Positions 24,324 through 63,105 of a DNA stretch of 64,000 nucleotides are shown here, one piece after another (positions within the stretch are counted from its first letter, which is position 1; each line of letters begins with the position of its first letter). The position numbers were made by a program, and so were the translations under genes. Origin of the DNA: an uncultured Gemmatimonadales bacterium (GTDB taxonomy: Bacteria > Gemmatimonadota > Gemmatimonadetes > Gemmatimonadales > GWC2-71-9); the NCBI GenBank assembly GCA_963812085.1, contig CAWETL010000003.1:849706-913705 (forward strand), in the 5' to 3' direction. The notes beneath the pieces were generated by a model. It saw only the letters and a list, made by a program, of their open reading frames with translations, was not told the DNA's origin and did not search any database.

Positions 24324-24406
24324 TGCCCGAGGCGAGAGTCGAACTCGCACGGGGTTGCCCCCGACGGATTTTGAGTCCGTTGCGTCTGCCATTCCGCCAC
24401 TCGGGC
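24324..24406 (-). tRNA. tRNA-Leu (anticodon CAA)
   Basis: Minus strand GCCCGAGTGGCGGAATGGCAGACGCAACGGACTCAAAATCCGTCGGGGGCAACCCCGTGCGAGTTCGACTCTCGCCTCGGGCA. 7-bp acceptor stem, anticodon loop CU-CAA-AA, long variable arm, TTCGA T-loop. No encoded CCA. Confidence 0.9.
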
Positions 24407-45347: not shown

Positions 45348-45709
45348 CGGGCCGCCTTCCGCGCCGCGCGGGCCACCGCGGGCGGCACCGGGATTTCCAT
45401 CCGAAGGAGCGCCGTGGAGTACACCTTGCCCTGCGCGTCGGTCTTGAGGGAGATGGTGCCGCCGCCGTCGAGCGCGCCGTGGAGCAGGAAGTTGAGCGCC
45501 GAGAGGTTCGGCAACTCGTAGCGATCGACGCCGCTCACCATGCCACGGAAGTGGCGACGGACCCGCGCCACGGTCACCTGGCGGCGGAGGAGGTCGTACC
45601 ACTCCGGCTCGAGGGCGATGAGCCCCACGTTGGCGGAGTTGCCCTTGTCGCCGGAACGGGCGTGGGCCAGGTAGCGGAGCTGCAGGGGAACCGACTTGGG
45701 CGCGGGCAT
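45344..45709 (-). CDS. DUF4387-like protein (C-terminal module of AtuA-type proteins)
   Basis: LRYLAHARSGDKGNSANVGLIA...RYELPNLSALNFLLHGALDGGGTISLKTDAQGK. Confidence 0.65.
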   Translation of the reverse strand: MPAPKSVPLQLRYLAHARSGDKGNSANVGLIALEPEWYDLLRRQVTVARVRRHFRGMVSGVDRYELPNLSALNFLLHGALDGGGTISLKTDAQGKVYSTALLRMEIPVPPAVARAARKAAR

Positions 45710-47085
45710 CAGGCCTCCAGGATCTCGACGCGCACGCCGGGCTCCACGGCGGTGCGGTCGATGAGCGCGGGCCAGTAGGCGACGACCTCCTCCACCTGCG
45801 GCCGACCGCCGGCGAACCCGGTCACGCTTGGCGGGCCGGTCAGCACCAGCGGCGCGATTTCCCGGGTGAAGCGCTCCACCGCCGCCCGGTCAGTCGAGCG
45901 CACTCCAACCCTGAGCTGCACCTCGGGGGCCTCGGGATCGGCGGGCCCGGCCAGCCGCCCGTGGGTGGCGTCCACCCCGACGAACTCGGTCAGGACCTGC
46001 TCGAACTCGAGGCCGAGGTCCTTGAGCCGCTGGCGCAGGATGCGATCGGCCGCCCGCGCCTTGTCGTAGGCGTCGGGCCAGCTGTAGACCAGGGTGCCGA
46101 CGGCCTTGAAGCCGTAGGAGTACGCGATGGAGACCTTGAGCATCGGCGTGCGGGGCGCGCCGCGGATGCCGGTGACCCGCACGCGGTCCTTGCCCGCCTG
46201 CTCGAGCCGGATGGTGGTGAAGTCGGCCACGCCGTCGGGCGTGATGTACTCGTGCGGATTGCCCATCTCGTAGACCAGCTGTTCCGTGACCGACGCGATG
46301 GACACCACGCCGCCGGTGCCGGGGTGCTTGGTGACGACGAAGCTGCCGTCGTCCGAGGCCTCGACGATCGGGAACCCGGGATTGGCCATCCCCTTCACCT
46401 TGCGCCAGTCCTTGAGGAGGTTCCCGCCCGAACTCTGCGCGCCGCACTCGATGATGTGCCCCGCCACGGTGCCGGCGGCCACCTTGTCCCAGTCGTCGGG
46501 ATCCCAGCCGAACTCGTGGAACATCGGCGCGAGGGTGAGCCCGGTGTCGGTGACCCGCCCGGTGATGACCACCTGGGCGCCGCGGTCGAGCGCCTCGACC
46601 ATCGGCGCCATGCCGAGGTACGCATTGGCGGAGAGGACGCGGCTCCGGATGTCGGAGAGCGGCTGTCCGGTCTCCATGTCCCGCAGCTGGTGCCCGGCGG
46701 CGAGCAGCTCGTCGAGCCGTGGCAGGAGGTCGTCGCCGCTGACGAGACCGACCCTGAGCTTCCCGGCGAACCCGTGTTCCCGGGCCAGCCGCAGCACCGC
46801 CTCCGCGCAGCCGCGGGGATTCACCCCGCCGGCATTGGAGGTGACGCGGATTCCCTTCGCGACGATCGCGGGGAGGATCCGGCCCATGAGCGGCACGAAA
46901 TCGCGCGCGTAGCCCGCCTCGGGGTTGCGCGACTTCTGCTTCTGCAGGATGGACATGGTCACTTCGGCCAGGTAGTCCATCATGAGGTAGTCGATCGGCC
47001 CGCCCTCGACCTGGCGGACTGGCGCCTCCAGCCAGTCGCCCCAGAAGCCCTGGCCGCCGGCGATCCGGACGATGCGCGCGCTCAT
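45709..47085 (-). CDS. DUF1446 (AtuA-like, acyclic terpene utilisation family) protein
   Basis: Internal ATG 47085: [18 protein letters not shown]...[17 protein letters not shown]...NAYLG...VITGRVTDT...[15 protein letters not shown]. Confidence 0.7.
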
Positions 47086-49922
47086 CGCATCACCGGGCCG
47101 AACGGAGCGGGGAGCCCGGCTTCCCGGGTCCACCGGAGATTGCCGTCGAGCACGATCGCCTCGCCGAGGGGGAAGAACGCGTCGGGCATCGGCCACGAGG
47201 AAGCGGGCAGGAGGAACCGGAGGACGGTGGTCGCCCCGGCCGCGACGCGCACCTGCTGCGGTTCCGACCCGGGCGCAGGCTCGAGCGCCACCGGCTCCGT
47301 GCCGTACAGCCGGATGCGGAGACGCATCGTCCATCCGCCCCGGTCGGCCGAATCCGCGAGCGCGGGCGTGAGGCGCACCACCAGCTGCTGGCCCGCGAGG
47401 CTGGCGGGAATCTCGGCGTTCAGCCGGCCGCGCGCGTAGTTGAGCGGCTCATTTCCAAGGATTCGGCCCGACGGATCGTAGATGGTGGCCGCAAAGTCGG
47501 TGAAGCGGGACCACGCGGCGGCCGGCATCTCGAAATCGACGCGGAGGTCGTGCGCCCAGGCCGGCACGGCGAAGGGCACGTCCTGCGCCTCCCCTGCGTG
47601 GCCCGGAACCACCACGCCCCGCTCGCCGCCGAGGAGCACGACGCCGACCTGCAGCTCGGCCGGCTTCGTCGTCCGGTTGTCGAGGGCGAGTTCGACGCCC
47701 TGCGGATTCCGTGTCAGGCCGATCCGCACCGGCGACGTCCGGATGGTGACCGTGGTGGACCCCGGCGCGATCGGCGACCCGAGGGCATCGGCCTCCCAGA
47801 CCCCGGCCGTCGCATCCGCGGCGTCCACCACGAAGAGCGCCGCCGCCGCCCCACTCCCCGCCGGCTCGGCGTCCTGATCCAGGTTCGGCTGGCCGCTCGG
47901 CTGGTGCAGCGCACCCAGGAGCGTCGGACCCGCCGAATCGGAATTGATCCGCGCATAGAACGGGCGGCCGGAGTCCACGGCAAAGAAAACCCGCTCCGAC
48001 TCTCCCGCGGCCAGCGACACCGGCCCGACGGCCGTGTCGGCCCGCACCGGGACCACCACCGTATTGACGAGCCGGAAGAGCGGACCGGCGAGCGAGTCGG
48101 GGCCCCAGCCGGTCACGATGCCGACGTGCACGCCCGGGCCTCTGAGCAGCTCGCGGCGGTACGACACCGTGACGGTGCTGGTGCCGGCGCCCGCCTCCAC
48201 CTGCCGGGGCGCCACGAGCCACGGGCTGTCGCTCCGGAGCGTCACGGCCAGGGGCGGGACGCCGGCTGGACGTTCGAGCCGGAAACGCTGCAGCGTATCA
48301 CCCGGCCCCGCGAGCCCGCCACGACGAAAGGCCGCGAGCGCGCCCTGGCCTCCGTCGGCGCTGGCCCAGATCTCGGGGACCAAATGTCCCTCGCGCAGCC
48401 AGTTCCACGCCGCCTGGACGTCGGGCGTGCCGGCGCCCTGGTCGAGATAGGTGGCTCCCACGATCGGATGCGCGGTGACCATGAGCGCCTGCTTGAGCTC
48501 CCGCGCGTTCGGGGGCGTCAGGTGATCCGCCCGGGCCGCCGAGACGAGGAGCGCGAGGAGCCCGGCGGCGTGCGGAGACGCCATGCTGGTGCCGCCCTTG
48601 CGTTCCTCGCCGATGTCCCAGCGAGGCACCGTCGAGTAGGCAACGCCCGGCGTGACGAGGTCGGGCTTGGCGATCTCGCCGCCCCGCGCCGAGAAATACG
48701 CCACCGGATCGGGTCGTCCGTCGGTCGGCGCACCGGCCAGGAAGGTGAGCGGGAAGGTGGCGCCGACGCCGAGGGCGCGCGCCGCCGACCCGGGAAAGCC
48801 GACGGTCGAGAGCCCCGGCCCGTCGTTGCCGGCGCTGATGGCCATCGGGACGTCGGGATTGGCGGCGAGGACGGAATCAACGATCTGGTCGATCCGCGCC
48901 GTGCCCTCGAACTCGTTCCCCACCCCAAAGCTCATGTTGAGCACCAGCGGCAGCTGCCGGGCCCGCGCGAACCGGATGGCGTAGTCGAGCGCGCGCAGCA
49001 TGCTCCCGTTGACCGTGACGCCGCCGTGCGCGTCGTTGGCGAGCTTCACGCCGATGAGCTGGGCGCCGGGCGCCACGCCGTCGAAGCCGCCGATGCCGTA
49101 CAGGTCGTTCCCCGCCGCGATGCCTGCCACGTGCGTGCCGTGTCCGCTGTTGTCGAAGAAGAGGTCGAGCGCCGGCTCGCCGTTCACCGTGGCGAGGTTT
49201 GCGGCGATGGTGATCGGCGAGGCCTGCTGCGGCTGGGCCCAGCCAAAGGTGTCGCGGCCGCGGAGATAGTCGCGGATCGGCCGCTCCCCGGCGAACGACC
49301 CGTTGCCGTCGGTGTCGGCAAAGAGCACCCACCCGTCGCTGGCCTGGGTGACGAGCACCGCGAGCGAGTCGGAGTCGTCGCCGTCGCCGTTGAGGTCGGA
49401 GGCGGGCATGTCGCCGAGCGGCCGTTCGCGCAGGATGCCGCCGTACCACGGGCCGGCCGTGTTGAGTGCGCGCACGCGGCTCATCCCGGCCAGCAGGATC
49501 CCCCCGATCCGGACCGAGTCGCCCTCGGGCTGGAGCCTGGCGAGCGGGACCGCGCCCTCGCCGGAAAAATCCCGGAGGTCGAGGATTTTCGGATTGCCGG
49601 TCGGCGTCCGCTGCAGCCCGGGCACGCCGGCGTCGATCCCGCTGTCGAGGATGCCGATGAGCACGCCGCGCCCGTCCCACTCGGGATGGGCGGCCACGAA
49701 GGCGTCGGCGTGGGTGGCCCCAAGCGGCATCCAGCCTCGTGCCAGCGCGGCGTCGGGCGAGGCAACCGGCCGCACCTCGGCGCGTCCGCTCTCCGGGAGG
49801 GCCGGGGGCGGCAGGCCGGGGGTCTCGAGCTTGCCGGGATCGATGTTCGGCTTGGGCGGGTGCACTGCCGGGGCGCAGCCGAGGACGGCCGCCCCGAGGA
49901 GCCAGACTGGGAAGCGTCGCAT
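47082..49922 (-). CDS. Subtilisin-like (S8) serine peptidase lipoprotein, about 946 aa
   Basis: Internal ATG 49922: [18 protein letters not shown] lipobox. Catalytic [27 protein letters not shown]. Long C-terminal beta-rich region. Confidence 0.8.
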
Positions 49923-51580
49923 CAGCGCTGGGTCACCATGTCGAGCGGAGGAAGGACGAAGGGACCCAAATGCGGTCCGCCGTAGTTGGACACCGTCCGG
50001 AGCAGGAAGGCCAGCTGGTCGCGGGTCTCTTCCGGCGTGACGATGGCGTCGAGGTAGCCGCGGGCAGCGGCGAACTTGGCGTCGAGCTGGTGTTCGTAGT
50101 CGGCGCGCATCGAGTCCATGGCGCCCTTGACCGCGGCCGGCGGCTCCGCGCCCGCCAGCCGCGCCTTCTCGATCTCCGGCCCGTGCACGGCGGAGACCGC
50201 CGATTCCCCCTCCATCACCGCCATCCGGCCGGTGGGCCACGACAGGATGAAGTCGGGGTCGAATCCCTGCCCCGCCATCGCGTAATACCCGGCGCCGGAG
50301 GCGTGGTTGACCGTCAGCACGATCTTGGGCACCACCGCCGTCGCCATGGCCTCGACGAAGCGGGCGCCGGCGCGGATGATCCCCGAGTGTTCCGCCTCGG
50401 GGCCCACCATGAAGCCGCTCACGTCCTGGATGAAAAGGAGCGGGATGCGCTCCCGACTGGCCGTCTCGATGAAATACGCGACCTTCTCCGCGCTCTCGGT
50501 GTACACGATGCCGCCGAACTTCGGGCGGCTGCCCTCGGGACCCTTGACCAGCCCGCGCCGGTTGGCGATCACCGCCACGGGCCACCCCTCGAGGTGCCCG
50601 TGGCCGCAGATCATCTCCCGGGCCACGTCCGGCTGGAATTCGTCGAGCGCGCCGCCGTCGAGCACGCACTCGAGGAGGTGCGGCATGTCGTAGGACATGC
50701 GGTGGTCGTGCGGCAGCAGGTCGTACAGCTCGGCGGGGTCCCGCTTGGGCGGCCGCAGGGCGCGCACCTGGTGGCGCACGCCCTCGAGGCGGGGGAGCCG
50801 GCCCACGTACTCCCGGATCCGCTGGAGGCACTCGCCGTCGTTGGCGGCGCGGTAGTGGGCCACCGCGCTCACGGCGGTGTGGGTCCGCGCGCCGCCCAGC
50901 GATTCCGCGTCCACCGTCTGCCCGGTGGCGCCCTTGACCAGGTTCGGGCCGCCGAGGCCCATGAAGCTGGTGCCGTCCACCATGAAGATCACGTCGGAGA
51001 GCGCGGGCAGGTACGCGCCGCCGGCCACGCAGCTCCCCATGACGGCACTGACCTGCGGGACGTGCAGGTAGCGGCGCATGATCGAGTTGTAGTAGAAGAT
51101 GCGGGAGGCGCCGTACTGGCCGGGGAACACCCCGCCCTGGTACGGGAGGTTCACGCCGGCGCTGTCCACCAGGTAGATGATCGGGATCCGCTGGCGCATG
51201 GCCACTTCCTGCGCCCGGAGGATCTTCCGGATCGTCTCGGGCCACCAGGAGCCCGCCTTGACCGTGGCGTCGTTCGACACGATCACGACTTCCCTGCCCT
51301 CGACGACGCCGAGGCCGGTGATGACGCCGGCGCCGGGCGCCTGGCCATCGTACTGGTCGTAGGCTACGAGCAGGCCGAGTTCGAGCCAGGGCGTGCCCGG
51401 GTCGCGCAGCTGTTCCACGCGTTCGCGGGGGGAGAGCTGGCCCTTGGCGTGCATCTTGGCCACGCGCGACGCGCCGCCGCCGGCCTCGAGCCGGTGCGCG
51501 AGCGCGCGGTACTCGTCGGTCAGGAGCCGGAGACGGCTGGCCGAAGCAGCCGTGGAGGCCGACTTGGGAGCGGGGCGCAC
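49922..51580 (-). CDS. Acyl-CoA carboxylase carboxyltransferase (beta) subunit (MccB/AtuC/PccB family)
   Basis: GQLSPRERV, ANDATVKAGSW, DSAGV, SAVMGSCVAGGAY, ANRRG, FIQDVSGFMVG motifs. Confidence 0.85.
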   Translation of the reverse strand: MRPAPKSASTAASASRLRLLTDEYRALAHRLEAGGGASRVAKMHAKGQLSPRERVEQLRDPGTPWLELGLLVAYDQYDGQAPGAGVITGLGVVEGREVVIVSNDATVKAGSWWPETIRKILRAQEVAMRQRIPIIYLVDSAGVNLPYQGGVFPGQYGASRIFYYNSIMRRYLHVPQVSAVMGSCVAGGAYLPALSDVIFMVDGTSFMGLGGPNLVKGATGQTVDAESLGGARTHTAVSAVAHYRAANDGECLQRIREYVGRLPRLEGVRHQVRALRPPKRDPAELYDLLPHDHRMSYDMPHLLECVLDGGALDEFQPDVAREMICGHGHLEGWPVAVIANRRGLVKGPEGSRPKFGGIVYTESAEKVAYFIETASRERIPLLFIQDVSGFMVGPEAEHSGIIRAGARFVEAMATAVVPKIVLTVNHASGAGYYAMAGQGFDPDFILSWPTGRMAVMEGESAVSAVHGPEIEKARLAGAEPPAAVKGAMDSMRADYEHQLDAKFAAARGYLDAIVTPEETRDQLAFLLRTVSNYGGPHLGPFVLPPLDMVTQR

Positions 51581-51581
51581 G

Positions 51582-52007
51582 TCAGTCCTTCAGGTGCTCG
51601 GCCGCCCAGCCCTGGATGTACTCCACCAGGTCGGAGGTCGGCGTGCCCGGGCCGAAGAGGCGCCCGGTGCCGAGGCGCTGCAGCGCCTCGACGTCCTCGG
51701 CGGGGAGGATGCCGCCGCCGGTGAGGAGAATGTCCTGCCGCCCCTGCGCGTCCAGCAGCTGGCGCACGCGGGGGAAGAGCGTCATGTGGGCGCCCGAGAG
51801 GATGGAGAGCCCCACGACGTCGACGTCCTCCTGCACCGCCGCGGCGGCGACCATCTCCGGCGTCTGGTGCAGGCCGGTGTAGATGACTTCCATCCCGGCG
51901 TCACGCAGGGCCGCGGCGACCACCTTGGCGCCACGGTCGTGCCCGTCGAGGCCGGGCTTGGCCACGAGCACGCGGATGGGCCGGGCGGGAGACTTGGTGC
52001 GGGTCAT
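51582..52007 (-). CDS. icmB: B12-binding small subunit of an acyl-CoA mutase (IcmB-like)
   Basis: [21 protein letters not shown] (DxHxxG) ...[11 protein letters not shown]...GGG. 141 aa. Confidence 0.85.
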
Positions 52008-52049: not shown

Positions 52050-53216
52050 CTAGCGGAACCGCAGCAGGGCGGCCAGGCCATGGATGGCCTTCTTGGCCGT
52101 CGGCTGATAGACCACGTCCACGGCGATCCGCTGCCGCAGCGCTTCCTCGATGGCGTCGTCGAGGACGTCGATGACGGGGACCACGTCCGGCTCCCCGCGC
52201 AGGTCGGCCTCCATCACCGCGAGCCGCCCGGAGGCGAGCGCGCGATAGCCGGGCTCCGCCACGTCGGGATCGACGAGCAGGGTGCGCACCTGGCCCCGGC
52301 CGAGCGCCTTGAGGGTGTCGCGCACGTCGTCCACCGCCCACCCGGTGCCCAGCCCCTCCTCGAGCTCGTGCATCAGCAGCAGTTCGGAGGTCCGTTCCCA
52401 CTCGTGACGGACGGCCAGGGTGGCGGCCAGCACTTCGGCCGCCGTCACCGACTTCACGTTGAGGCGCACCGAGCCCATCACCCGGTCGAGCAGGTAGGGA
52501 TGGAGGAACGGGCCGAGCGCGCCGGCGTCGGTGCCGTTGCCGGCGAGCACGATGCCGTTGACCGGGTCCTTGCGGTCGAGCACCTGCAACTGGCGGGCGG
52601 CGAGCTCGAGGTGACGCTGGCGCTCCTCGCGGATCCGGTTCTGGAAGCTGCGCTCGCCCCATCCCGGGCCGTCCTGGTCGCCGTGATAGCGGCCGCCGCG
52701 GGTCGACGGCGACACGAGGCTCTCCACCTCGTGCGCGCCGAACGCCGTGACCTGGAAGAACCGGGCGGCGGTGCGGTCGAGGACGGCGGTGAGGATCCGG
52801 CCGAACTCGTCCTCCACCGAGGCCAGCTCGCGCACCAGCGGGGTGCGGTCCACCGCCAGGCGGGAGCGGTGCACGCCGGGCAGGGGCACCACTTCCCACA
52901 GCTTGAGCGGGCCGCAGGCAAAGATGGCCACGCCCTGCGACGAGGGGAGGCTGCCGGGGTGCTTGAGGAAGTCGAGCACGCGCGCCAGGTCGGCGCGCAC
53001 CGCCTCGTCGGTGGCGCGCTCGAGGCCGAGCGCCGGCAGCGCCGCCTCGAGGTCGCGGACCCGGTTCTTGACCTTGATGAGGTACTTGCCTCGCGCGCGG
53101 TCCCGCGGCTCCAGCTTCAGGTAGCAGGTGACCACGCGGTGCCGGCCGGGCCGGACGGCGTTCAGGCGGGCGAGTTGCGCGCCGACGGGGTCGGCGGACG
53201 ACTTGGTGCGTGCCAT
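52050..53216 (-). CDS. Bacterial eRF1/Pelota-like (baeRF1-type) protein
   Basis: GGAGGA RBS then ATG 53216. Central RGGRYHGDQDGPGWGERSFQNRIREERQRH. C-terminal GWAVDDVRDTLKALGRGQVRTLLV resembles eRF1 domain 3. 388 aa. Confidence 0.6.
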   Translation of the reverse strand: MARTKSSADPVGAQLARLNAVRPGRHRVVTCYLKLEPRDRARGKYLIKVKNRVRDLEAALPALGLERATDEAVRADLARVLDFLKHPGSLPSSQGVAIFACGPLKLWEVVPLPGVHRSRLAVDRTPLVRELASVEDEFGRILTAVLDRTAARFFQVTAFGAHEVESLVSPSTRGGRYHGDQDGPGWGERSFQNRIREERQRHLELAARQLQVLDRKDPVNGIVLAGNGTDAGALGPFLHPYLLDRVMGSVRLNVKSVTAAEVLAATLAVRHEWERTSELLLMHELEEGLGTGWAVDDVRDTLKALGRGQVRTLLVDPDVAEPGYRALASGRLAVMEADLRGEPDVVPVIDVLDDAIEEALRQRIAVDVVYQPTAKKAIHGLAALLRFR

Positions 53217-53245
53217 TCTATCCTCCAGGCCAGCGGCCCGGGGCG

Positions 53246-54945
<1,700 letters not shown>

Positions 54946-54949
<4 letters not shown>

Positions 54950-55989
54950 GACCGGGCTCCCTGCTTCAGGCCTTCCAGGATAGTGGCTGCCAGCTCGTAG
55001 GGACTCACCCGTCCCGTTTCGAGGTCGTCGAGGCGCGCGCGGATGGCCTGTTCGGCCGCGGTCTCGTCCCACACCCAACGTACCAGCGCGCGGTCCACCA
55101 CCTCGCGGGTGCGCTCCTCGAGGCGCCGGCGCCGGCGCTCCCGCAGCGTGCCGGACTGGGCCAGCCAGGCGCGGTGATCGTCGAGCGCCTTCACCACCAG
55201 GTCCACCCCCTCGCCCTTGGCGGCGACGGTGGCCAGCACGGGCTGGACCCAGGCGGCGGAGCCCTCGTCGTCGGCCGTGGCCGCCGCCTTCGCCGCGGCG
55301 CGGGCCTGGAAGCCGTGGTGCGCCGGGACGTGGCGGAAGGCGTTGCCGCGGCGGATGCCGAGGGTGATCTCGATTTCCTGGCGCAGCTTGTCGGCGCCGG
55401 AGCGGTCCGCCTTGTTGACGACGAAGAGGTCCGCCACCTCCATCACGCCGGATTTGAGGGTCTGGATGCCGTCGCCCGACTCGGGCACCAGCAGCAGGAG
55501 GCTGGTGTCGGCCATCCGCGACACGTCGAGCTCCGACTGACCCACGCCGACGGTCTCCACCAGGATGCGGTCGAAGCCCGCCGCGTCGAGCACGTCGCAG
55601 ACCTCGCGCGTCGTGGTGGCGAGCCCGCCAAGCGATCCGCGCGTGGCCATCGAGCGGATGAATACTCCCGGGTCGAGGGCCACGCTCTCCATCCGGATCC
55701 GGTCGCCGAGGAGCGCCCCGCCCGAGAAGGGGCTGGTCGGGTCCACCGCCACGACCGCCACGGTCAGGCCCTGTCCGCGGAACGCTGCCACCAGCCGTTC
55801 GGTGAGCGTGGACTTCCCGGCGCCGGGGGGGCCGGTGATGCCGATCCGGTGTGCCCGGCCGAGCTGCGAATGGAGCGCGCTCAGCAGCGACTCGAAGCCC
55901 TCCCGGCCGTTCTCGACCACCGAAATGGCGCGGGCCAGCGCGGCCGGGCGGCGCTCGCGAAGTCCCTGCAGCATTGCGTCACGATCCAT
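54946..55989 (-). CDS. meaB: MeaB/ArgK-type G-protein chaperone for B12 mutases
   Basis: [39 protein letters not shown]. Confidence 0.9.
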
Positions 55990-56024: not shown

Positions 56025-57359
56025 CTAGACCAGGAACCACGTGGCCATGCCGAGGAGCAGGAAGAATCCGCACATGTCGGTGAAGGTCGTGACGAACACC
56101 GAGCTCGCGATGGCCGGGTCGACCTTGAGGCGCTCGAGGAGCAGCGGAACGAAGGCCCCGGCGAACCCGGCCACCGCCAGGTTCCCGGTCATCGCGAAGG
56201 CCACCACCGCGCCGAACTTCGGGCCGGCGGCGAACCAGGCGATGGAGCCGGCGATGAGCGCGTTGGCGAGCCCGTTGACCAGCCCGACGACCATCTCCTT
56301 CCCCACGATGCCGCCGGCCGCGCCGGCGGGCACCTGGCCCAGCGCGATCCGGCGCACCGACACCGCGAGCGCCTGGGTCCCGGCGTTGCCTCCCATCCCC
56401 GCGATGACCGGCATGAAGACCGCGAGCCACTTCAGTTCCTGGATCGCGTTGGAGAACACCAGCACCACCGAGGCGGCCGCGAACGCGGTGATGAGGTTCA
56501 CGTACAGCCAGGGCAGGCGGCTCCGCACCGCAACGCTCCACGGGGCGCTCAGCTCTTCGTCCGGCGAGACGCCGCCGAACTTGAGGAGGTCCTCGGTGGT
56601 CTCCGCCTCGACGACGTCGATCACGTCGTCGAAGGTGACGCGGCCGAGGAGCTTGCCGTCGGCGTTCACCACCGGCAGGCTCGGCAGGTTGTAGCGCGAC
56701 ATCAGCCGCGCGACTTCCTCCTGGTCGAGCTCGGGCGTGACGAAGATGTCGGCCGGCTCCATGAACTCCCGCACCGGCCGGGTCGGGGCGCTGGTCACCA
56801 GGTCCCTGAGCGGCAGGACGCCCGCCAGGCGGCCCCCGGCGTCCACCACGAAGACCTGGTAGAACCCCTCGTTCTCCTCGGCCTGCCGGCGGATCTCCTC
56901 GATGGCCTCGCCCGCCGTGGCCGTGTCGAGCACCGACACGACCTGCGTGGTCATCAGGCCGCCGGCGGATTCCTCGTCGTACTTGAGCAGCCGGTCCACC
57001 CCGGCGCGGTCCTCGACCTCGGAGAGGATGCGCTCCTGCTCGTGGGGCTCGAGCTCCTGCAGGATGTCGGTGGCGTCGTCGTCGGCCATTTCGTCGACGA
57101 TGTCGGCCGCCTGTTCGGGCTCCAGCGCCGCCAGCGTATCCTCGGCGTGCTCCTCCTCCGGCATCTCGACCAGCGCCTCGCCCGAAATGTCCGGCGGCAG
57201 CGCGCGGACGGCAGTCAGCCGCTCGGCGTCGTCCAGCGAGGAGAGCACGTCCGCGAGGTCGGCGGGCTCGAGGTCGAGGGCGCGCCGGACGAACTCGTCG
57301 AGGCGGCCCGCGCGCAGCAGCTCGGCGAGGCCGGGCTTGGCCCGCGTCCTGGGGCTCAC
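56025..57359 (-). CDS. mgtE: Magnesium transporter MgtE
   Basis: N-domain, tandem CBS domains, and a TM domain with MGGNAGTQ and FTDMCGFF motifs. GTG start overlaps the upstream stop. Confidence 0.9.
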   Translation of the reverse strand: MSPRTRAKPGLAELLRAGRLDEFVRRALDLEPADLADVLSSLDDAERLTAVRALPPDISGEALVEMPEEEHAEDTLAALEPEQAADIVDEMADDDATDILQELEPHEQERILSEVEDRAGVDRLLKYDEESAGGLMTTQVVSVLDTATAGEAIEEIRRQAEENEGFYQVFVVDAGGRLAGVLPLRDLVTSAPTRPVREFMEPADIFVTPELDQEEVARLMSRYNLPSLPVVNADGKLLGRVTFDDVIDVVEAETTEDLLKFGGVSPDEELSAPWSVAVRSRLPWLYVNLITAFAAASVVLVFSNAIQELKWLAVFMPVIAGMGGNAGTQALAVSVRRIALGQVPAGAAGGIVGKEMVVGLVNGLANALIAGSIAWFAAGPKFGAVVAFAMTGNLAVAGFAGAFVPLLLERLKVDPAIASSVFVTTFTDMCGFFLLLGMATWFLV

Positions 57360-58549
57360 GGCGCCTCCCGAACGAGCGGGGTGGGAGGCACCGGCCCGGG
57401 GCGCACCAGCACCCGGTCCACCCGCGTGGCGGACGCGGCGACGACGTCGATCTCGAGCCCCTGCACGACGAACCGCTCGCCCGCCAGGGGGATGCGGCCG
57501 GCCAGCTCGACGAGCATCCCGCCGATGGTCGAGGCCTCTGCGCTGGGCAGGGTGACGCCGAACTGCCCCGCGACCGCGGAGGCGGGCGTGGCCCCGTCGA
57601 GCTCGGCGAGCACCGGCGCGCCGGACACCGGCCCGGCGGACTCGGGGTCGTGTTCGTCGTAGATCTCGCCGACGAGCTCCTCGAGCAGGTCTTCGAGCGA
57701 CACCATCCCCATCGTGCCGCCGAATTCATCGAGGACGACGGCCAGGTGCCGCCGCTCCCGCTGCATGTCGAGGAAGAGGGCGCCGGCGGGCCGGCCCGGC
57801 GGCGAGACCGCCACCGGCCGCACCGGGAGCGGATCGCCGGGGCGGAGCTTGAAGAGGTCGAAGGCGTGGAGCATGCCCACGATCTCGTCCAGCGTGCCGC
57901 GATAGACCGGGATCCGGCTGTATCCGCTCTGGGAAAAGACCTTCAGCACGTCCTGCAGGTCGGCGTCCTCGGGGATCGCGACGAGCTCGGTGCGCGGCGT
58001 CATGATATCGCGCACCGGCCGGCTCGCGAACGCCATCACGCCGCCCACGGTGCGGAGGTCCTCGTCGGCCCGGAGGCCGACCGCCGCGCCCTCGCGCCAG
58101 AGCGTGCGGAACTCGGTGGCCCGGGAGGGACGCCGCGCCGGGAGGAGGAAGCCGAGCAGCTTGGCCCACGGGGTGAGGATCGGCATCACGATGCGGGTGA
58201 CGGCATCGGCCCGCGAGGCGGTGAGCCAGCGCGGGGCGAGATAGCCGCTGAAGAGCACGAACGGCACCGCGACCAGCGCGACGAGCGGCGCGAGGAGGGC
58301 GGCGCCCGAACCGGCGAACACCGCCGGGAAGGCGGCGCCCAGCAGGATCACGCCGAACGCGGTGGTGGCGGCCGCGGTGGTCAGCATCGACTCGATGCGC
58401 GAGAGCCAGGCGAGCGCCGAGGAGCCCCCGCGCAGTTGCCGGGAGACGGCGCGTGCGAGCTCGGCACGGCTCACGTACACCAGCGCCGCGCCGGCCATCG
58501 ACCCGAAGAGGGTGAGCACCAGCCCCGCGAGGAAGGCAGCCCAGATCAT
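57356..58549 (-). CDS. CNNM/CorC-family transporter-associated protein (DUF21-CBS-CorC_HlyC)
   Basis: Internal ATG 58549. TM N-terminus, IMTPRTELVAI, SRIPVY, VVLDEFGGTMGMVSLEDLLEELVGEI. Confidence 0.8.
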   Translation of the reverse strand: MIWAAFLAGLVLTLFGSMAGAALVYVSRAELARAVSRQLRGGSSALAWLSRIESMLTTAAATTAFGVILLGAAFPAVFAGSGAALLAPLVALVAVPFVLFSGYLAPRWLTASRADAVTRIVMPILTPWAKLLGFLLPARRPSRATEFRTLWREGAAVGLRADEDLRTVGGVMAFASRPVRDIMTPRTELVAIPEDADLQDVLKVFSQSGYSRIPVYRGTLDEIVGMLHAFDLFKLRPGDPLPVRPVAVSPPGRPAGALFLDMQRERRHLAVVLDEFGGTMGMVSLEDLLEELVGEIYDEHDPESAGPVSGAPVLAELDGATPASAVAGQFGVTLPSAEASTIGGMLVELAGRIPLAGERFVVQGLEIDVVAASATRVDRVLVRPGPVPPTPLVREAP

Positions 58550-59733
58550 TCGGCCTCCGCCGGTGCCGCGCTCTCCACGGCGGGAAGCTGCCGGGCCAGG
58601 ACCCGCCGCACCCGGCGGCGGCTCACCTGCTCCACCTCGAGTTCGAGCGCGCCCACCCGCACCGACTCCCCGACCCGCGGGATCCGTCCGAGTTCCGCCA
58701 GCACGAGCCCGCCGACGGTGCTGACGTCCTCGCGCCCGAGGTCGTGACCGAAGAGGGCCTCGAGCTCGGAGAGCGCCACGCCGCCCTGGACCCGCCAGGC
58801 GCCGTCGCCGGCGGCCTGCACCGGCTCCACCTCGTCCACGTCGTACTCGTCGTGAATCTCGCCGACCACCTGCTCGAGGATGTCCTCGAGCGTGATGAGG
58901 CCCGCCGTGCCGCCGAACTCGTCCACCACGACCGCGAGATGGCTGGGCCCGCGCTGGAAGTCGCGCAGCTGCCGGTCGAGCGACTTGCCGGTCGGCACGA
59001 ACGGGACCGGCCGGATGAGCGTGGTCCACGGCGGGGCGGTCTCGTCGTCCGAGAGGTGCGCCAGCATGTCCTTGGCGTACACCACGCCGACGACGGCGTC
59101 GGGATGCTCCTCGAAGACCGGCATCCGCGCATGCTCGGCGCGGCTGAAGGTGGCGACCACGTCCTCCCGGCTGTCGGAGCGGTCCACCCCCACGATGTCG
59201 ATGCGCGGGGTCATCACCTCGGAGACCACCATCTGGGCGAGGGAAAAGACGCCGATGAGGGCGTCGCGCCGCGTCGCATCGGGCCGCGGAAGGTGCGGAC
59301 CGGGCGGCGCCGGCCGCATGCCGTGGCGGTCCACCCACGCCACGAGCCGGAAGAGCGGTGCGAAGATGGCGAGCGAACGCGCCGCCGCGGGGCGGGCCAG
59401 GCGCGCCAGGTCGGGCGCGATCGACGCGAGGAGCCGGGGGAGCAGGTCTCCCACCACCCACACGACGGCCACCGCGAGGAGGAGCCGGAGCGCGCCGGCG
59501 AAGGGCGCCCAGTCCCACCAGACGATGGCGGTGGCGGCGGAGGCGCCGGCCAGCACCAGCAACGCCAGGTGCGCCAGGTGGAGCTGCCGCGCGAGGAGCA
59601 GCACCCCGCCGGTTTCCGTCTCGGGACGGGGCAGGTCGCCCTCCGCCTCGGCGGCGAGCGCCAGCCACGCGGCCCAGATGGCGAAGACCACGAGCGCCGT
59701 CGGCGCGAGCATCAGGTGGAAGAGGGCGCTCAC
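58546..59733 (-). CDS. CNNM/CorC-family transporter-associated protein, second paralog
   Basis: GTG 59733 overlaps the ybeY TGA. VMTPRIDIVGV, ARMPVF, VVVDEFGGTAGLITLEDILEQVVGEI. Confidence 0.8.
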   Translation of the reverse strand: MSALFHLMLAPTALVVFAIWAAWLALAAEAEGDLPRPETETGGVLLLARQLHLAHLALLVLAGASAATAIVWWDWAPFAGALRLLLAVAVVWVVGDLLPRLLASIAPDLARLARPAAARSLAIFAPLFRLVAWVDRHGMRPAPPGPHLPRPDATRRDALIGVFSLAQMVVSEVMTPRIDIVGVDRSDSREDVVATFSRAEHARMPVFEEHPDAVVGVVYAKDMLAHLSDDETAPPWTTLIRPVPFVPTGKSLDRQLRDFQRGPSHLAVVVDEFGGTAGLITLEDILEQVVGEIHDEYDVDEVEPVQAAGDGAWRVQGGVALSELEALFGHDLGREDVSTVGGLVLAELGRIPRVGESVRVGALELEVEQVSRRRVRRVLARQLPAVESAAPAEAE

Positions 59734-60155
59734 AGGACCTTCCGCAAGTACTTCTCCTGCTTGACCCACATCGCCGAGGCCTCGCGCCCCGCCCCGTCGT
59801 CGTGGTCCCACCCGAGGATGTGCAGCGTTCCGTGGATCACGAGGCGGGCGAGTTCCTCCCGGACCGGGAGGCCGCGCCGCCGGGCCTCGCGCTCGGCCTG
59901 CCAGCGGCAGAGGTAGAGGTCGCCGAGCAGGCCGCCGCGCGGATCGGGCAGCGCGAAGCTGATGACGTCGGTGGGAAAGTCGTGGCCCTTGTGGAGCTGG
60001 TTCATCTGGCGCATCGCCTCGCGCCCGAGGAAGGTCACGGAGACGGACGCGTGCCGGCGCTCGCCGTCCAGCACGGTGCGCACCGCCCGGCGCACCAGCG
60101 CGGCCGGCAGGGGGATCACCCGCCCGTGGACGGTGACCTCAGCGGCCGCCGACAC
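59730..60155 (-). CDS. ybeY: rRNA maturation endoribonuclease YbeY
   Basis: HGTLHILGWDH zinc motif. 141 aa. Confidence 0.9.
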   Translation of the reverse strand: MSAAAEVTVHGRVIPLPAALVRRAVRTVLDGERRHASVSVTFLGREAMRQMNQLHKGHDFPTDVISFALPDPRGGLLGDLYLCRWQAEREARRRGLPVREELARLVIHGTLHILGWDHDDGAGREASAMWVKQEKYLRKVL

Positions 60156-60170
60156 GCGTCGCTTCCGCCG

Positions 60171-61130
60171 TCATCCGACCTGGTCTTCCGCGTAGGCGCG
60201 GATGATCTCGCGGACCAGGCGGTGCCGGACGACGTCGCTCTCCTGCAGGTAGCAGAACGAGATGCCGTCGATGCCCGGGAGGATCCGCTCGATCTGGATC
60301 AGGCCGGAGTCCTCGCGCTTGGGCAGGTCCACCTGGGTCTTGTCGCCGGTGACCACCACGCGGCTGTTCACGCCGAGGCGGGTGAGGAACATCTTCATCT
60401 GGGCGCCGGTGGCGTTCTGCGCCTCGTCGAGGATGATGAACGCGTCCGAGAGCGTCCGGCCGCGCATGTACGCCAGCGGCGCGATCTCGATGGTGCGGGT
60501 CTCGAGGGCCTTCTGGACCCGCTCGTGGGGCATCATGTCCTCGAGGGCGTCGTACAGCGGGCGCAGGTACGGGTCCACCTTGGCCTGCAGGTCGCCGGGG
60601 AGGAAGCCGAGGGACTCGCCGGCCTCGACCGCGGGGCGGGCGAGGATGATCCGCTTGACCCGCTTCCGCGCGAGCGCCTCGACCGCCTTGGCCACCGCGA
60701 GGTACGTCTTCCCGGTCCCGGCGGGTCCGATGCCGACGACGACGTCGTGCGCGGCGATGGCCGCCAGGTAGTCCTTTTGCCCCGGCGTCTTGGCCATGAT
60801 GGCCTTGCGCATGCCGGGCAGCACGATGCGGCCGTCGGCGCCGGCGGTCGGGAGCTCGGCCCCGGGCTCGGAGGCGATCCGGTACACGTCCTCCGGCGCG
60901 ATGGACTCTCCCATGCGGGCCAGGTCGATGAGCCCTTGCACCACCGGCGTGGCGCGCTCGATCTGTTCGAGGGTACCGCCCAGCGAGAGCGTGTCGCCGC
61001 GGAGCGTGGCGCGCACGCCGAGCGCGCGCTGGAGTTCGAGGAGGTTCACGTCGTTCACGCCGCCGAGGAGGAGCGGATCCGCGCCCTCGGTGGAGAGGCG
61101 GTGCACGACGTCGTTGGCGTCAGCCTTCAC
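60171..61130 (-). CDS. phoH: PhoH-like ATPase (YbeZ)
   Basis: GPAGTGKTYLA, FLPGDLQAKVDPYLRPLYDAL, IILDEAQN, TGDKTQVDLP. Confidence 0.9.
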   Translation of the reverse strand: MKADANDVVHRLSTEGADPLLLGGVNDVNLLELQRALGVRATLRGDTLSLGGTLEQIERATPVVQGLIDLARMGESIAPEDVYRIASEPGAELPTAGADGRIVLPGMRKAIMAKTPGQKDYLAAIAAHDVVVGIGPAGTGKTYLAVAKAVEALARKRVKRIILARPAVEAGESLGFLPGDLQAKVDPYLRPLYDALEDMMPHERVQKALETRTIEIAPLAYMRGRTLSDAFIILDEAQNATGAQMKMFLTRLGVNSRVVVTGDKTQVDLPKREDSGLIQIERILPGIDGISFCYLQESDVVRHRLVREIIRAYAEDQVG

Positions 61131-62895
61131 CGGTGACCTCCAGGTGCAGTGCGGCCAGGTCCTTCGGGTCGATGGGCGTCGGGGCGCCCTCGAAGAGGGC
61201 GCGGGCCGCCGTGGTCTTCGGGAAGGCGATCACGTCCCGCAGGTTGTTCGAGCCCGCGAGCAGCATCGCGATCCGGTCGAAGCCGAGGGCAAACCCGCCG
61301 TGCGGGGGCGCGCCGCCGGCCAGCGCGTCGATCAGGAAGCCGAAGCGGCGGCGGATGTCGTCCGGCGGAATCTTGAGCAGCTCGAAGATCGTGGTCTGCA
61401 GCTCGGGCGTGGTGATCCGGATCGAGCCGCTGCCCAGCTCGTTGCCGTTGTACACCGCGTCGTAGTGCAGCGCACGGCAGGACCACGGGGCCGTCTTGAG
61501 CTTGGCGGCGTCCTCGGGATGCGGAGCCGTGAACGGGTGGTGGGCCGGGGACCACTCGCCGGTGGCAGGGTCCTGCTCGAAGAGCGGGAAGTCCACGATC
61601 CAGCAGAAGGCGTGCGGCTCGGCGGCTACCATGCCGGGCTTGCGGGTGAGCGCGGTGCGGACCGAGTGAAGCGCCGGCGACGTGACCTGGTCGGCGCCCG
61701 TCACCGCCACGAACAGGGTGCCGGCGGGCGCGTTCAGCTTGTCGAGCGCGAAGGCGCCGATCGCCTTGACCCCCTGCCCTTCCCAACCGGCGCCGGTGCG
61801 GCGCGCCCAGATGAGCCCGCCGGCCCCCGCCTCCTTCGCCAGCGCCGTGAGCGTGTCGAGTTCCTTGCGCGTCGCCTCGCCCTGGCCGACGGCCAGGATG
61901 CCGCGGACCCGGCCCCCGGCCTTGATGGCCTCGTGCACGAACGGCGCGGCGTCGCCGCCCACGAGCGGCGTCAGGTCCTGGATCTCCAGCCCGTAGCGGA
62001 GGTCGGGCTTGTCCACGCCGTACTTCTCCATCGCCTCGCGGTAGGTGAGCCGCCGGAAGGGCCGCTTGACCACGTGCCCCGCCTCGGCCCAGAGGTCCAC
62101 CAGCACCTGCTCGACGACGGCCTGGACATCCTCCGGCCCGACGAAGCTGGCCTCGATGTCGATCTGGGTGAACTCGGGCTGGCGGTCGGCGCGGAGGTCC
62201 TCGTCGCGGAAGCAGCGCGCGAGCTGGAAGTAGCGGTCGTATCCCGCCACCATCAGCAGCTGCTTGTAGATCTGCGGGGACTGCGGCAGCGCGTAGAACT
62301 CGCCGCGATGCACGCTGCTCGGCACCAGGTAGTCGCGCGCGCCCTCCGGGGTCGGCTTGGTGAGGATCGGCGTCTCGATCTCGAGGAAGCCGAGCTCGCT
62401 CATGGTGCGGCGGCTCCGCTGCAGCAGCCGGTGGCGGAGCATCAGGTTCCGCTGCAGCTCGGGGCGGCGGAGGTCGAGCACCCGGTGCCGGAGGCGGAGT
62501 TCCTCGGAGGGGAGCTCCTCGCCCTCCTTCCGCGCGACCGGGATGGCGGGGGTGACGGCCGGGCCGACGATGGTGAGCGAGCGCACATGCACTTCCACCT
62601 CGCGCGAGGCCATGCCGGCATCGCGGCCGATTTCGGGTCGCACCGCCACTTCGCCCTCGGCCAGCACCACCGTTTCCGGACCCACCGACGCGGCGCGGGC
62701 AATCACCTCCGCCGCGCTCCAGCGCGGGTCGAAGGAGAGCTGCACCAGGCCGGCGCGATCACGCAGATCGAGGAAGACGACGCCGCCCAAGTCGCGGCGG
62801 CGATGCACCCAGCCGCCGAGGCGCACGGCCTGGCCGACGTGTTCGCGGGTCAATTCGCCGCACAGGTGTGTGCGGTACGTGGTAGAGGTGGGCAT
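61120..62895 (-). CDS. aspS: Aspartate--tRNA ligase
   Basis: Internal ATG 62895: MPTSTTYRTHLCGEL...GWVHRRRDLGGVVFLDLRDR. FRDEDLRADRQPEFTQID, GGAPPHGGFALGFDR. Confidence 0.9.
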   Translation of the reverse strand: MPTSTTYRTHLCGELTREHVGQAVRLGGWVHRRRDLGGVVFLDLRDRAGLVQLSFDPRWSAAEVIARAASVGPETVVLAEGEVAVRPEIGRDAGMASREVEVHVRSLTIVGPAVTPAIPVARKEGEELPSEELRLRHRVLDLRRPELQRNLMLRHRLLQRSRRTMSELGFLEIETPILTKPTPEGARDYLVPSSVHRGEFYALPQSPQIYKQLLMVAGYDRYFQLARCFRDEDLRADRQPEFTQIDIEASFVGPEDVQAVVEQVLVDLWAEAGHVVKRPFRRLTYREAMEKYGVDKPDLRYGLEIQDLTPLVGGDAAPFVHEAIKAGGRVRGILAVGQGEATRKELDTLTALAKEAGAGGLIWARRTGAGWEGQGVKAIGAFALDKLNAPAGTLFVAVTGADQVTSPALHSVRTALTRKPGMVAAEPHAFCWIVDFPLFEQDPATGEWSPAHHPFTAPHPEDAAKLKTAPWSCRALHYDAVYNGNELGSGSIRITTPELQTTIFELLKIPPDDIRRRFGFLIDALAGGAPPHGGFALGFDRIAMLLAGSNNLRDVIAFPKTTAARALFEGAPTPIDPKDLAALHLEVTGEG

Positions 62896-62962
62896 CTGGA
62901 CAAACTTAACCGCCGCTCCGCGGACGGGCAAGTAATTATGAGGAAAGAGTTTAGGGGCATTC

Positions 62963-63105
62963 TGTCATTGCGAGGCCACGCAGTGGCCGAAGCAATCTCG
63001 CCCCAGATTGCAGAGTCGGCCTCCTCGGGTTGGTCCTCCGGGCCTGCAGTTCGCGCCCTGTCCTGGGATTGCTTCGTCGGCCCTGTGGGCCTCCTCGCAA
63101 TGACA
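62963..63105. repeat. Palindromic intergenic repeat, family A, copy 3 (expanded, about 1.5 units)
   Basis: tgtcattgcgaggccacgcagtggccgaagcaatc...gattgcttcgtcggccctgtgggcctcctcgcaatgaca, with an internal partial duplication. Confidence 0.75.

Follow-up and report, generated by a model that had tools for sequence, protein, structure and literature searches.

A Balon-like gene kept between the subunit genes of a B12-dependent acyl-CoA mutase in Gemmatimonadota, and its possible role in ribosome hibernation

Introduction

In a 64,000-nucleotide stretch of the genome of an uncultured Gemmatimonadales bacterium (assembly GCA_963812085.1, contig CAWETL010000003.1; the whole analyzed stretch is hereafter called the window, and positions refer to it), an open reading frame (ORF) whose product resembles translation factors of the eRF1/Pelota type lies between the genes for the large and small subunits of a B12-dependent acyl-CoA mutase. 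This location raises the question of what such a protein does inside an operon of metabolic enzymes. The reading favored here, with a probability of roughly 0.6, is that the gene encodes a non-catalytic hibernation factor of the Balon type, which would bind at the A site of the ribosome, and that its synthesis would be tied to a catabolic program of branched-chain acyl-CoA use and protein scavenging; ribosome and EF-Tu binding, co-transcription and physiological coupling are all inferred. In 2024, work on three relatives (Balon, Msmeg1130 and Rv2629) showed that these proteins are hibernation factors. They lack GGQ and NIKS motifs and, together with EF-Tu(GDP), occupy the A site in an mRNA-independent manner; the gene contexts reported for Balon are stress-response operons (PMC10901736). 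A preliminary description of the locus, made from the sequence, had noted little experimental work on the family and is superseded on this point. The protein from the window, hereafter the Balon-like protein, represents a new and unmodeled branch within a known family, found in a conserved context that has not been reported before, and does not amount to a novel kind of system.

Results

Gene and reading frame

The Balon-like gene occupies positions 52050-53216 of the minus strand, with an ATG at 53216 followed by a frame of 388 codons that ends in a stop codon at 52052-52050; its assignment draws on the ORF, the PF18854 match, the predicted fold and the selection analysis presented below. A Shine-Dalgarno-like site, GGAGGA (53221-53226, minus strand), lies 4 nt 5' of the ATG, and GGAGG is found at the same position in the closest loci (L001-L006). 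A gap of 29 nt separates the ATG from the stop codon of the mutase large-subunit gene (53248-53246), and 42 nt lie between the Balon-like stop and the ATG of the small-subunit gene (52007). The ORF, its ribosome binding site and both gaps had been correctly placed in the preliminary description, and the loop and C-terminal sequences quoted there are present as written.

The frame has the coding signature typical of high-GC genomes (GC content of 0.95 at third and 0.46 at second codon positions), and more than 2,400 homologues of the protein were found; the third-position value and these homologues ruled out a pseudogene or an antisense-ORF artefact. The gene is under purifying selection, with a ratio of nonsynonymous to synonymous substitution rates (dN/dS) of 0.17 (21 pairs). 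The values for its neighbors were 0.07-0.11, and the Balon-like gene thus evolves approximately twice as fast as the surrounding enzyme genes. No second Balon-like copy was present in the 64,000 nt.

Family assignment and predicted structure

The protein was assigned to baeRF_family10 (PF18854) on the basis of a match of residues 126-269 to nearly the entire profile (positions 1-141 of 143), with 48.4 bits against a gathering threshold of 27.1 and an E value of 1.6e-12; the same family is precomputed in all 120 closest homologues. Three NCBIfam models of ribosome hibernation factors also matched the protein over its full length below their cut-offs, namely the MSMEG_1130-family equivalog (E 5e-11, 42.2 vs. 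480 bits), the AOC03_06830 (Balon) model (E 2e-7, 30.8 vs. 330 bits) and the Rv2629 model (E 1e-5, 24.6 vs. 320 bits). Because these scores are far below the cut-offs, the Balon-like protein is, by sequence, a distinct branch and an equivalog of none of the three modeled families.

The depth of the profile determined which relatives were reached in searches of PDB sequences. A single-sequence phmmer search returned marginal eRF1 matches alone (E 0.14), and a shallow profile (A1) reached aRF1/eRF1 but not Balon, whereas only a wider family profile that included the mutase-embedded clade and its paralogues (A2) reached Balon-type proteins, with Msmeg1130 on top over the full length (E 1.9e-8), Rv2629 at E 2e-6, and an hhalign probability of 93% for Msmeg1130. 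The Msmeg1130 sequence recovered from the A2 alignment is itself a member of PF18854 (125 bits); the Balon-like protein thus shares its Pfam family with a validated hibernation factor and forms a separate branch there that has no curated equivalog.

The AlphaFold2 model built from an 80-sequence alignment had a mean predicted local distance difference test score (pLDDT) of 88.8 and a predicted template modeling score of 0.82, and replaced an earlier run with 29 sequences in which the C domain had stayed below a pLDDT of 50. The top Foldseek match of this model was ribosome-bound Msmeg1130 over the full length (E 2e-23, template modeling score (TM) 0.67-0.71, root-mean-square deviation 5.3 Å), and TM values were 0.61-0.68 for Balon, 0.60-0.63 for Rv2629, 0.45-0.50 for eRF1/aRF1 and at most 0.45 for Pelota. 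Full-length matches to aRF1, eRF1, Pelota and Balon structures indicated a three-domain architecture with N, middle (M) and C domains, and the C domain matched isolated structures of eRF1/aRF1 domain 3 (3ir9, TMt 0.58; 5dmr_B, TMt 0.64). The Pfam model eRF1_3 was not significant for the Balon-like protein and was significant for its relatives P0200 and P0170. The eRF1/Pelota-like fold of the baeRF1 type and the resemblance of the C-terminal part to eRF1/Dom34 domain 3, both noticed in the preliminary description, are thereby borne out, including the eRF1-fold match for which it had proposed a search.

Domain organization and conserved motifs

The N-terminal domain (aa 1-125; 52842-53216, minus strand) was delimited from the secondary structure of the AlphaFold2 model and the invariant columns of A1, and in these columns its tip, CYLKLEPRDRxRGKYLIKxKNR, is basic and invariant. 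No NIKS motif occurs in the sequence, and the tip reads EPRDRARGKYLIK instead. The middle domain (aa 126-290; 52347-52841, minus strand) contains the PF18854 region and matches the eRF1 middle domain 2hst. Within it, a loop at aa 169-188 (SPSTRGGRYHGDQDGPGWGE; 52653-52712, minus strand) was aligned by HMMER with the GGQ loop of aRF1/eRF1, in agreement with the earlier notion of a central loop standing where the catalytic loop would be; the loop was modeled with low confidence (pLDDT approximately 62) and is directly followed by an Arg-rich helix, NRIREERQRH. Nine residues of this region (R173, G174, G187, E188, N193, R194, R196, R201 and H202) were invariant among the 121 sequences of the clade, and two arginines of the post-loop helix are common to Msmeg1130.

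The C-terminal eRF1-domain-3-like domain (aa 291-388; 52053-52346, minus strand), defined from the model and from the 3ir9 and 5dmr_B matches, ends in GLAALLRFR, a motif common to aRF1 (in the A1 profile alignment) and Msmeg1130. It carries a beta-hairpin insertion at aa 323-334 (GYRALASGRLAV; 52215-52250, minus strand; modeled strands 323-326 and 331-332) with conserved residues G323, R325 and G330, which aligns to YVGTVGADGSLY of Msmeg1130. The hairpin is a candidate functional counterpart of the EF-Tu-binding hairpin of Balon.

The conserved loop also bears on the possibility that the protein is a catalytically active rescue or release factor, which, on stalled ribosomes, would move into the A site and hydrolyze peptidyl-tRNA through the loop glutamine (GDQ). 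A survey of the baeRF-1 families singled out family 10 for its conserved glutamine and considered it possibly active (PMC6514570), and the HMMER alignment sets G179-D180-Q181 opposite the GGQ of aRF1 in a strongly conserved loop. No GGQ motif is found in the protein, however, and no Gly-Gly precedes Q181; the residue is Gln in 88 of the 121 clade members and Asn, Asp, Glu or Ser in the others (approximately 27%), and is mostly Arg in the paralogue clades. Because the glutamine varies in this way, a catalytic role of Q181 seems unlikely, and Msmeg1130, from the same Pfam family and devoid of GGQ, binds as a hibernation factor (PMC10901736). An active release or rescue factor was therefore judged improbable.

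Conservation of the genomic placement

A locus scan with one genome per GTDB species yielded 80 loci with 54-83% identity, nearly all of them labeled Gemmatimonadales or Gemmatimonadota. The mutase large-subunit gene was directly upstream of the Balon-like gene in 73 of the 76 loci with enough flanking sequence (72 detected by script, plus L080, whose two matches overlap), and the small-subunit gene was found at most 1.2 kb downstream in 66 of 69 loci, either directly adjacent, as in the window (28/66), or after an interposed gene of approximately 0.7 kb for a HAD-IA hydrolase (38/66). The same array was recovered in a sister clade with approximately 52% identity, which includes the complete 5.5-Mb genome CP070666.1, in the order YbeY-CorC-CorC-MgtE-MeaB-mutase large subunit-baeRF10-B12 subunit-(carboxyltransferase)-S8-AtuA-ECH. 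The divergence of the Balon-like gene tracked that of its neighbors (Spearman 0.36-0.49, p < 0.004). Given the conserved synteny and this correlated divergence, the gene has been inherited vertically in place, and its orthologues almost always adjoin mutase genes, which answers a neighborhood question raised in the preliminary description.

These results bear on the suggestion, made in that same description, of a selfish or accidental insertion without host function. Its appeal lay in the unusual place inside a split enzyme operon, to which the twofold faster evolution relative to the neighbors can be added. Against it stand the dN/dS of 0.17 and the many invariant residues, the conservation in place down to approximately 52% identity across Gemmatimonadota, and the lack of mobile-element genes among the flanking genes annotated by Pfam or in the called-gene tables. 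The selection results and the phylum-deep synteny effectively refute it, and its remaining probability is minimal.

Several further features of the scanned loci were recorded. The HAD-IA hydrolase (approximately 225-231 aa) directly follows the Balon-like gene in 50 loci, mutase-less ones included (e.g. L011, 9158-9835; L084, 7855-8550), and neither the window nor its closest relatives carry it; the best NCBIfam matches of the hydrolase, REG-2-like and CTE7, were all below cut-off. The Balon-like gene and the hydrolase gene may form a more ancient unit. In a clade with approximately 60-63% identity (L010-L058; e.g. L011, 7935) the called Balon-like start (MATIAS..., MAATAS...) falls within the mutase large-subunit gene, approximately 32 nt from its 3' end and in a different frame, where the ATG arises from conserved Tyr-Gly codons of that gene. 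This arrangement suggests translational coupling in that clade, unlike the window, where the gene has its own start and Shine-Dalgarno site after the mutase stop. In L091 (5481-7029) the large-subunit gene appears as three short ORFs (233, 158 and 125 aa), either a pseudogene or frameshift errors of a metagenome-assembled genome. Two loci labeled "Bacillota bacterium" (L022) and "Acidimicrobiia bacterium" (L072) carry a Gemmatimonadales-type array with 55-62% identity, on contigs that are probably mis-binned.

Loci without the mutase and paralogous clades

Three species (L016, L067 and L074) have lost meaB and both mutase genes from an otherwise syntenic locus, in which a SulP/STAS transporter (L016) or an ABC1/UbiB-type kinase (L067, L074) takes their place. 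In all three, phoH-ybeY-corC-mgtE is still followed downstream by the genes for the Balon-like protein, the HAD hydrolase, the carboxyltransferase and the S8 protease. An obligate dependence of the Balon-like gene on the mutase was consequently rejected, and an obligate physical partnership is disfavored, since these species dropped the mutase genes and kept the Balon-like gene.

Other family-10 clades of Gemmatimonadota, with 40-50% identity, occupy different genomic places. The members of one of them (L081-L083, L088 and L089) are always preceded by an overlapping gene of approximately 300 aa, whose HHH_8/HHH_5 domains resemble the N-terminal part of PolX. Such a conserved partner of Balon-like genes is mentioned neither in the Balon paper nor in the other literature examined on the family. 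P-type cation ATPases, Usp, Archease-RtcB, an HPF(S30AE)-CSD fusion and CBS proteins lie near this HHH-linked clade, and another paralogue clade adjoins BON, a P-type ATPase and Usp. Stress and hibernation neighborhoods of this kind are those in which Balon genes have been reported (PMC10901736). Across the mutase-embedded clade and the paralogues together (A2), 20 residues are invariant, and the stress-island paralogues have similar sub-threshold scores against the three NCBIfam hibernation models. Because these residues and scores are held in common, the mutase-embedded copy looks like a re-wired rather than a re-invented paralogue.

Could the copy have been re-purposed as a mutase accessory, assisting assembly or regulation of the two subunits or of MeaB and no longer acting on ribosomes? 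Its position between the subunit genes, seen in 73 of 76 species as well as in the deep sister clade, would fit, as would the correlation of its divergence with that of the mutase genes (Spearman 0.42-0.49). The three species whose locus has neither MeaB nor the two mutase genes, and in which the Balon-like and HAD genes stay in the same block, argue against it, as do the invariant residues common to paralogues in hibernation or stress islands and a predicted overall conformation that matches ribosome-bound Balon homologues. We know of no mutase-accessory role for an eRF1/Balon-type fold, and consider this explanation highly unlikely.

The mutase genes and the array in the window

The gene order on the minus strand of the window is aspS, phoH, ybeY, corC, mgtE, meaB, mutase large subunit, Balon-like gene, mutase small subunit, carboxyltransferase, S8 protease and atuA. 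The large, substrate-binding mutase subunit (567 aa; 53246-54949, minus strand) was identified by PF01642 MM_CoA_mutase (E 7e-226) and TIGR00641, the small B12-binding subunit (141 aa; 51582-52007, minus strand) by PF02310 and TIGR00640, and the MeaB G-protein chaperone (54946-55989, minus strand), whose stop overlaps the mutase start (ATGA), by PF03308 (E 6e-91) and TIGR00750. The Balon-like gene thus does lie between the two subunit genes of a B12-dependent acyl-CoA mutase, as first noticed. Downstream follow an acyl-CoA carboxyltransferase of the beta-subunit type (49922-51580, minus strand; PF01039, E 2e-126), an S8 subtilase of 946 aa with a lipoprotein-type signal (47082-49922, minus strand; PF00082) and an AtuA-family protein (45709-47085, minus strand; PF07287, E 6e-154), and upstream corC (CNNM/CBS/CorC_HlyC) and mgtE, identified by Pfam (56025-58549, minus strand).

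The original naming of the mutase genes as icmA and icmB is plausible. The split large subunit, the B12-binding small subunit and MeaB are all present (PF01642, PF02310, PF03308), and the best PDB sequence matches of the large subunit were HcmA, a 2-hydroxyisobutyryl-CoA mutase (4r3u, E 6e-168), followed by methylmalonyl-CoA mutase (MCM). Alignment to MCM and HcmA chains showed Phe and Gln at the positions of Tyr89 and Arg207 of MCM (TMRQF..., EYMAQHAWI) and Ala at the position of Asp117 of HcmA, whose Ile90 is also absent. The Phe/Gln pair is what we take to be the signature of isobutyryl-CoA mutase, an assumption for which literature searches gave no confirmation. The split mutase, MeaB and the Phe/Gln/Ala pocket residues thus agree with the label, while no NCBIfam equivalog names the large subunit as isobutyryl-CoA mutase.

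The genes are tightly packed. Upstream, corC and mgtE overlap (GTGA), mgtE ends 35 nt before meaB, and meaB overlaps the large-subunit gene (ATGA); downstream, the small-subunit and carboxyltransferase genes are 1 nt apart, and the carboxyltransferase/S8 (TGATG) and S8/atuA (ATGA) junctions overlap. As the junctions from corC to atuA overlap or span at most 42 nt, the array is probably one transcript, judging by gene spacing alone. A sigma-70 promoter scan revealed no promoter-like site, and terminator-like sites occurred at about the same frequency as in shuffled sequence. The Rfam scan of the window found no riboswitch, in particular no cobalamin riboswitch, its only match being a tRNA gene (24324-24406, minus strand).

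Immediately upstream of meaB, the genes aspS, phoH (ybeZ), ybeY, corC (ybeX) and mgtE (57356-62964, minus strand) follow one another with junctions that are short or overlap. The Balon-like gene thereby shares its array with an RNase module for ribosome quality control and with two genes for Mg2+ transport, and so it does in the sister clade (L090-L092) and the three mutase-less loci. In the distal part (45709-49922), stop/start overlaps join the genes for the large, secreted or lipoprotein S8 subtilase and for AtuA to the carboxyltransferase gene, and the protease, an unusual component of an acyl-CoA catabolic operon, is kept in most loci.

One alternative is that the meaningful neighbors are phoH-ybeY-corC-mgtE, with their link to ribosome quality control and Mg2+, and that in this long stretch of conserved genes the mutase genes would only be bystanders. 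This explanation differs from the favored one solely in which neighbors matter. The tight packing of aspS-phoH-ybeY-corC-mgtE upstream in the window, the sister clade and all three mutase-less loci is in line with it, and the paralogues adjoin CBS-domain proteins and P-type cation ATPases. Yet mgtE or corC was found upstream in only 25 of the 51 loci with a full 8-kb flank, compared with 47-48 for the mutase and MeaB, and this explanation appears rather unlikely.

Discussion

Under the favored reading, and by analogy with Msmeg1130 and Balon, the Balon-like protein would sit in the A site of 70S ribosomes that are idle or translate slowly. The basic tip of the N domain would lie at the decoding center, the middle-domain loop and the Arg-rich helix would meet 23S rRNA beside the peptidyl-transferase center without hydrolyzing peptidyl-tRNA, and the C domain with its beta-hairpin would contact EF-Tu. 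This paralogue is fixed in the tightly packed array (corC-mgtE-)meaB, mutase large subunit, Balon-like gene, mutase small subunit, carboxyltransferase, S8 protease and atuA. From its fixed place in a probable single-transcript array, the protein would be made whenever the branched-chain acyl-CoA and protein-scavenging program is on, and silencing and protection of ribosomes would in this way be coupled to a nutritional state of slow growth.

A number of observations weigh against this proposal. The genomic context is metabolic and not stress-related, ribosome and EF-Tu binding are predictions by analogy, and the scores fall far under all three curated hibernation-factor equivalog cut-offs (42 vs. 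480 bits). The His-Pro of the Balon HP motif is not literally present, the conserved tip having E36-P37, to which a D-P of Msmeg1130 aligns. The middle-domain loop shows far stronger conservation than Burroughs and Aravind reported for non-catalytic baeRF-1 families, and its glutamine is kept in 73% of members, which makes some other activity possible. Finally, co-transcription is deduced from gene spacing only, and the promoters of this phylum may escape a sigma-70 scan.

A stronger version of the same idea is a metabolically wired hibernation factor, produced in step with the B12-dependent mutase and its GTPase chaperone, which might sense the same GTP/GDP or cofactor state and even contact MeaB or the mutase. 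This version is rather doubtful; if true, ribosome silencing would be set by a specific catabolic flux and not by a general stress regulon.

Neither the Balon paper (PMC10901736) nor a 2025 preprint on the evolution of hibernation factors mentions mutases or Gemmatimonadota, the baeRF-1 survey (PMC6514570) does not mention a metabolic-operon context, and a literature search for papers on Gemmatimonadota mutases returned nothing relevant. In the collection searched, these proteins are labeled "hypothetical protein" or "peptide chain release factor subunit 1", and the family is here extended to a branch that the current NCBI equivalog models would not name. A whole clade of Balon-type factors is fixed in a metabolic enzyme operon across a phylum abundant in soil, beside paralogues in stress contexts. 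The conserved placement hints that the factor is made together with a nutrient-scavenging pathway in Gemmatimonadota, and the clade is a natural case in which to test whether a hibernation factor can be linked to a particular nutritional program and how paralogous factors of this type share their work.

Comparison with known systems

Among the known systems, Msmeg1130 (MSMEG_1130 of Mycobacterium smegmatis; PDB 8v9j, 8v9l) is in the same Pfam family and was the best structural and PDB profile match of the Balon-like protein. Both have three domains and lack GGQ and NIKS, and both carry the two arginines in the helix after the loop, a hairpin in the C domain and an LR motif at the C terminus. 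They differ in sequence (approximately 20% identity), in the loop (TRGGRYHGDQDGPGWGE vs. FGQAPQERAGQ in Msmeg1130), in the N-domain tip, which is basic in the Balon-like protein (EPRDRARGK vs. ADPTQNLQ), and in the location of the Balon-like gene in a mutase operon. Rv2629 of Mycobacterium tuberculosis (PDB 8v9k) is a distant relative that adopts the same fold (TM 0.60-0.63).

Compared with the classical factors of the superfamily, the resemblance is more limited. The Balon-like protein and aRF1/eRF1 have three homologous domains, a C-terminal G-x-A-x-LLRFR and a loop and helix at the GGQ position, but the Balon-like protein is bacterial, lacks GGQ and NIKS, reaches TM values of 0.45-0.50 and carries the beta-hairpin insertion in the C domain; termination in these bacteria is presumably carried out by the classical RF1/RF2. 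Pelota/Dom34, from the same superfamily, is likewise a non-catalytic A-site binder, with a weaker structural match (TM at most 0.45) and a different N domain, and it splits stalled ribosomes with Hbs1/aEF1-alpha and ABCE1.

Balon itself (AOC03_06830 of Psychrobacter urativorans; PDB 8rd8, 8rdv, 8rdw) agrees with the Balon-like protein in fold and in the order of domains (TM 0.61-0.68), and by analogy the same action is proposed for the latter, i.e. mRNA-independent binding of the A site with EF-Tu(GDP). Identity between the two is approximately 15%. Balon has a lasso loop and a bL27 trap in its middle domain, and the conserved, low-confidence loop 169-188 of the Balon-like protein is at most a candidate counterpart. 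Balon genes have been reported in stress operons and not in metabolic ones (PMC10901736). The mutase-embedded clade is not in a stress operon, a location that is typical of Balon genes but does not define them.

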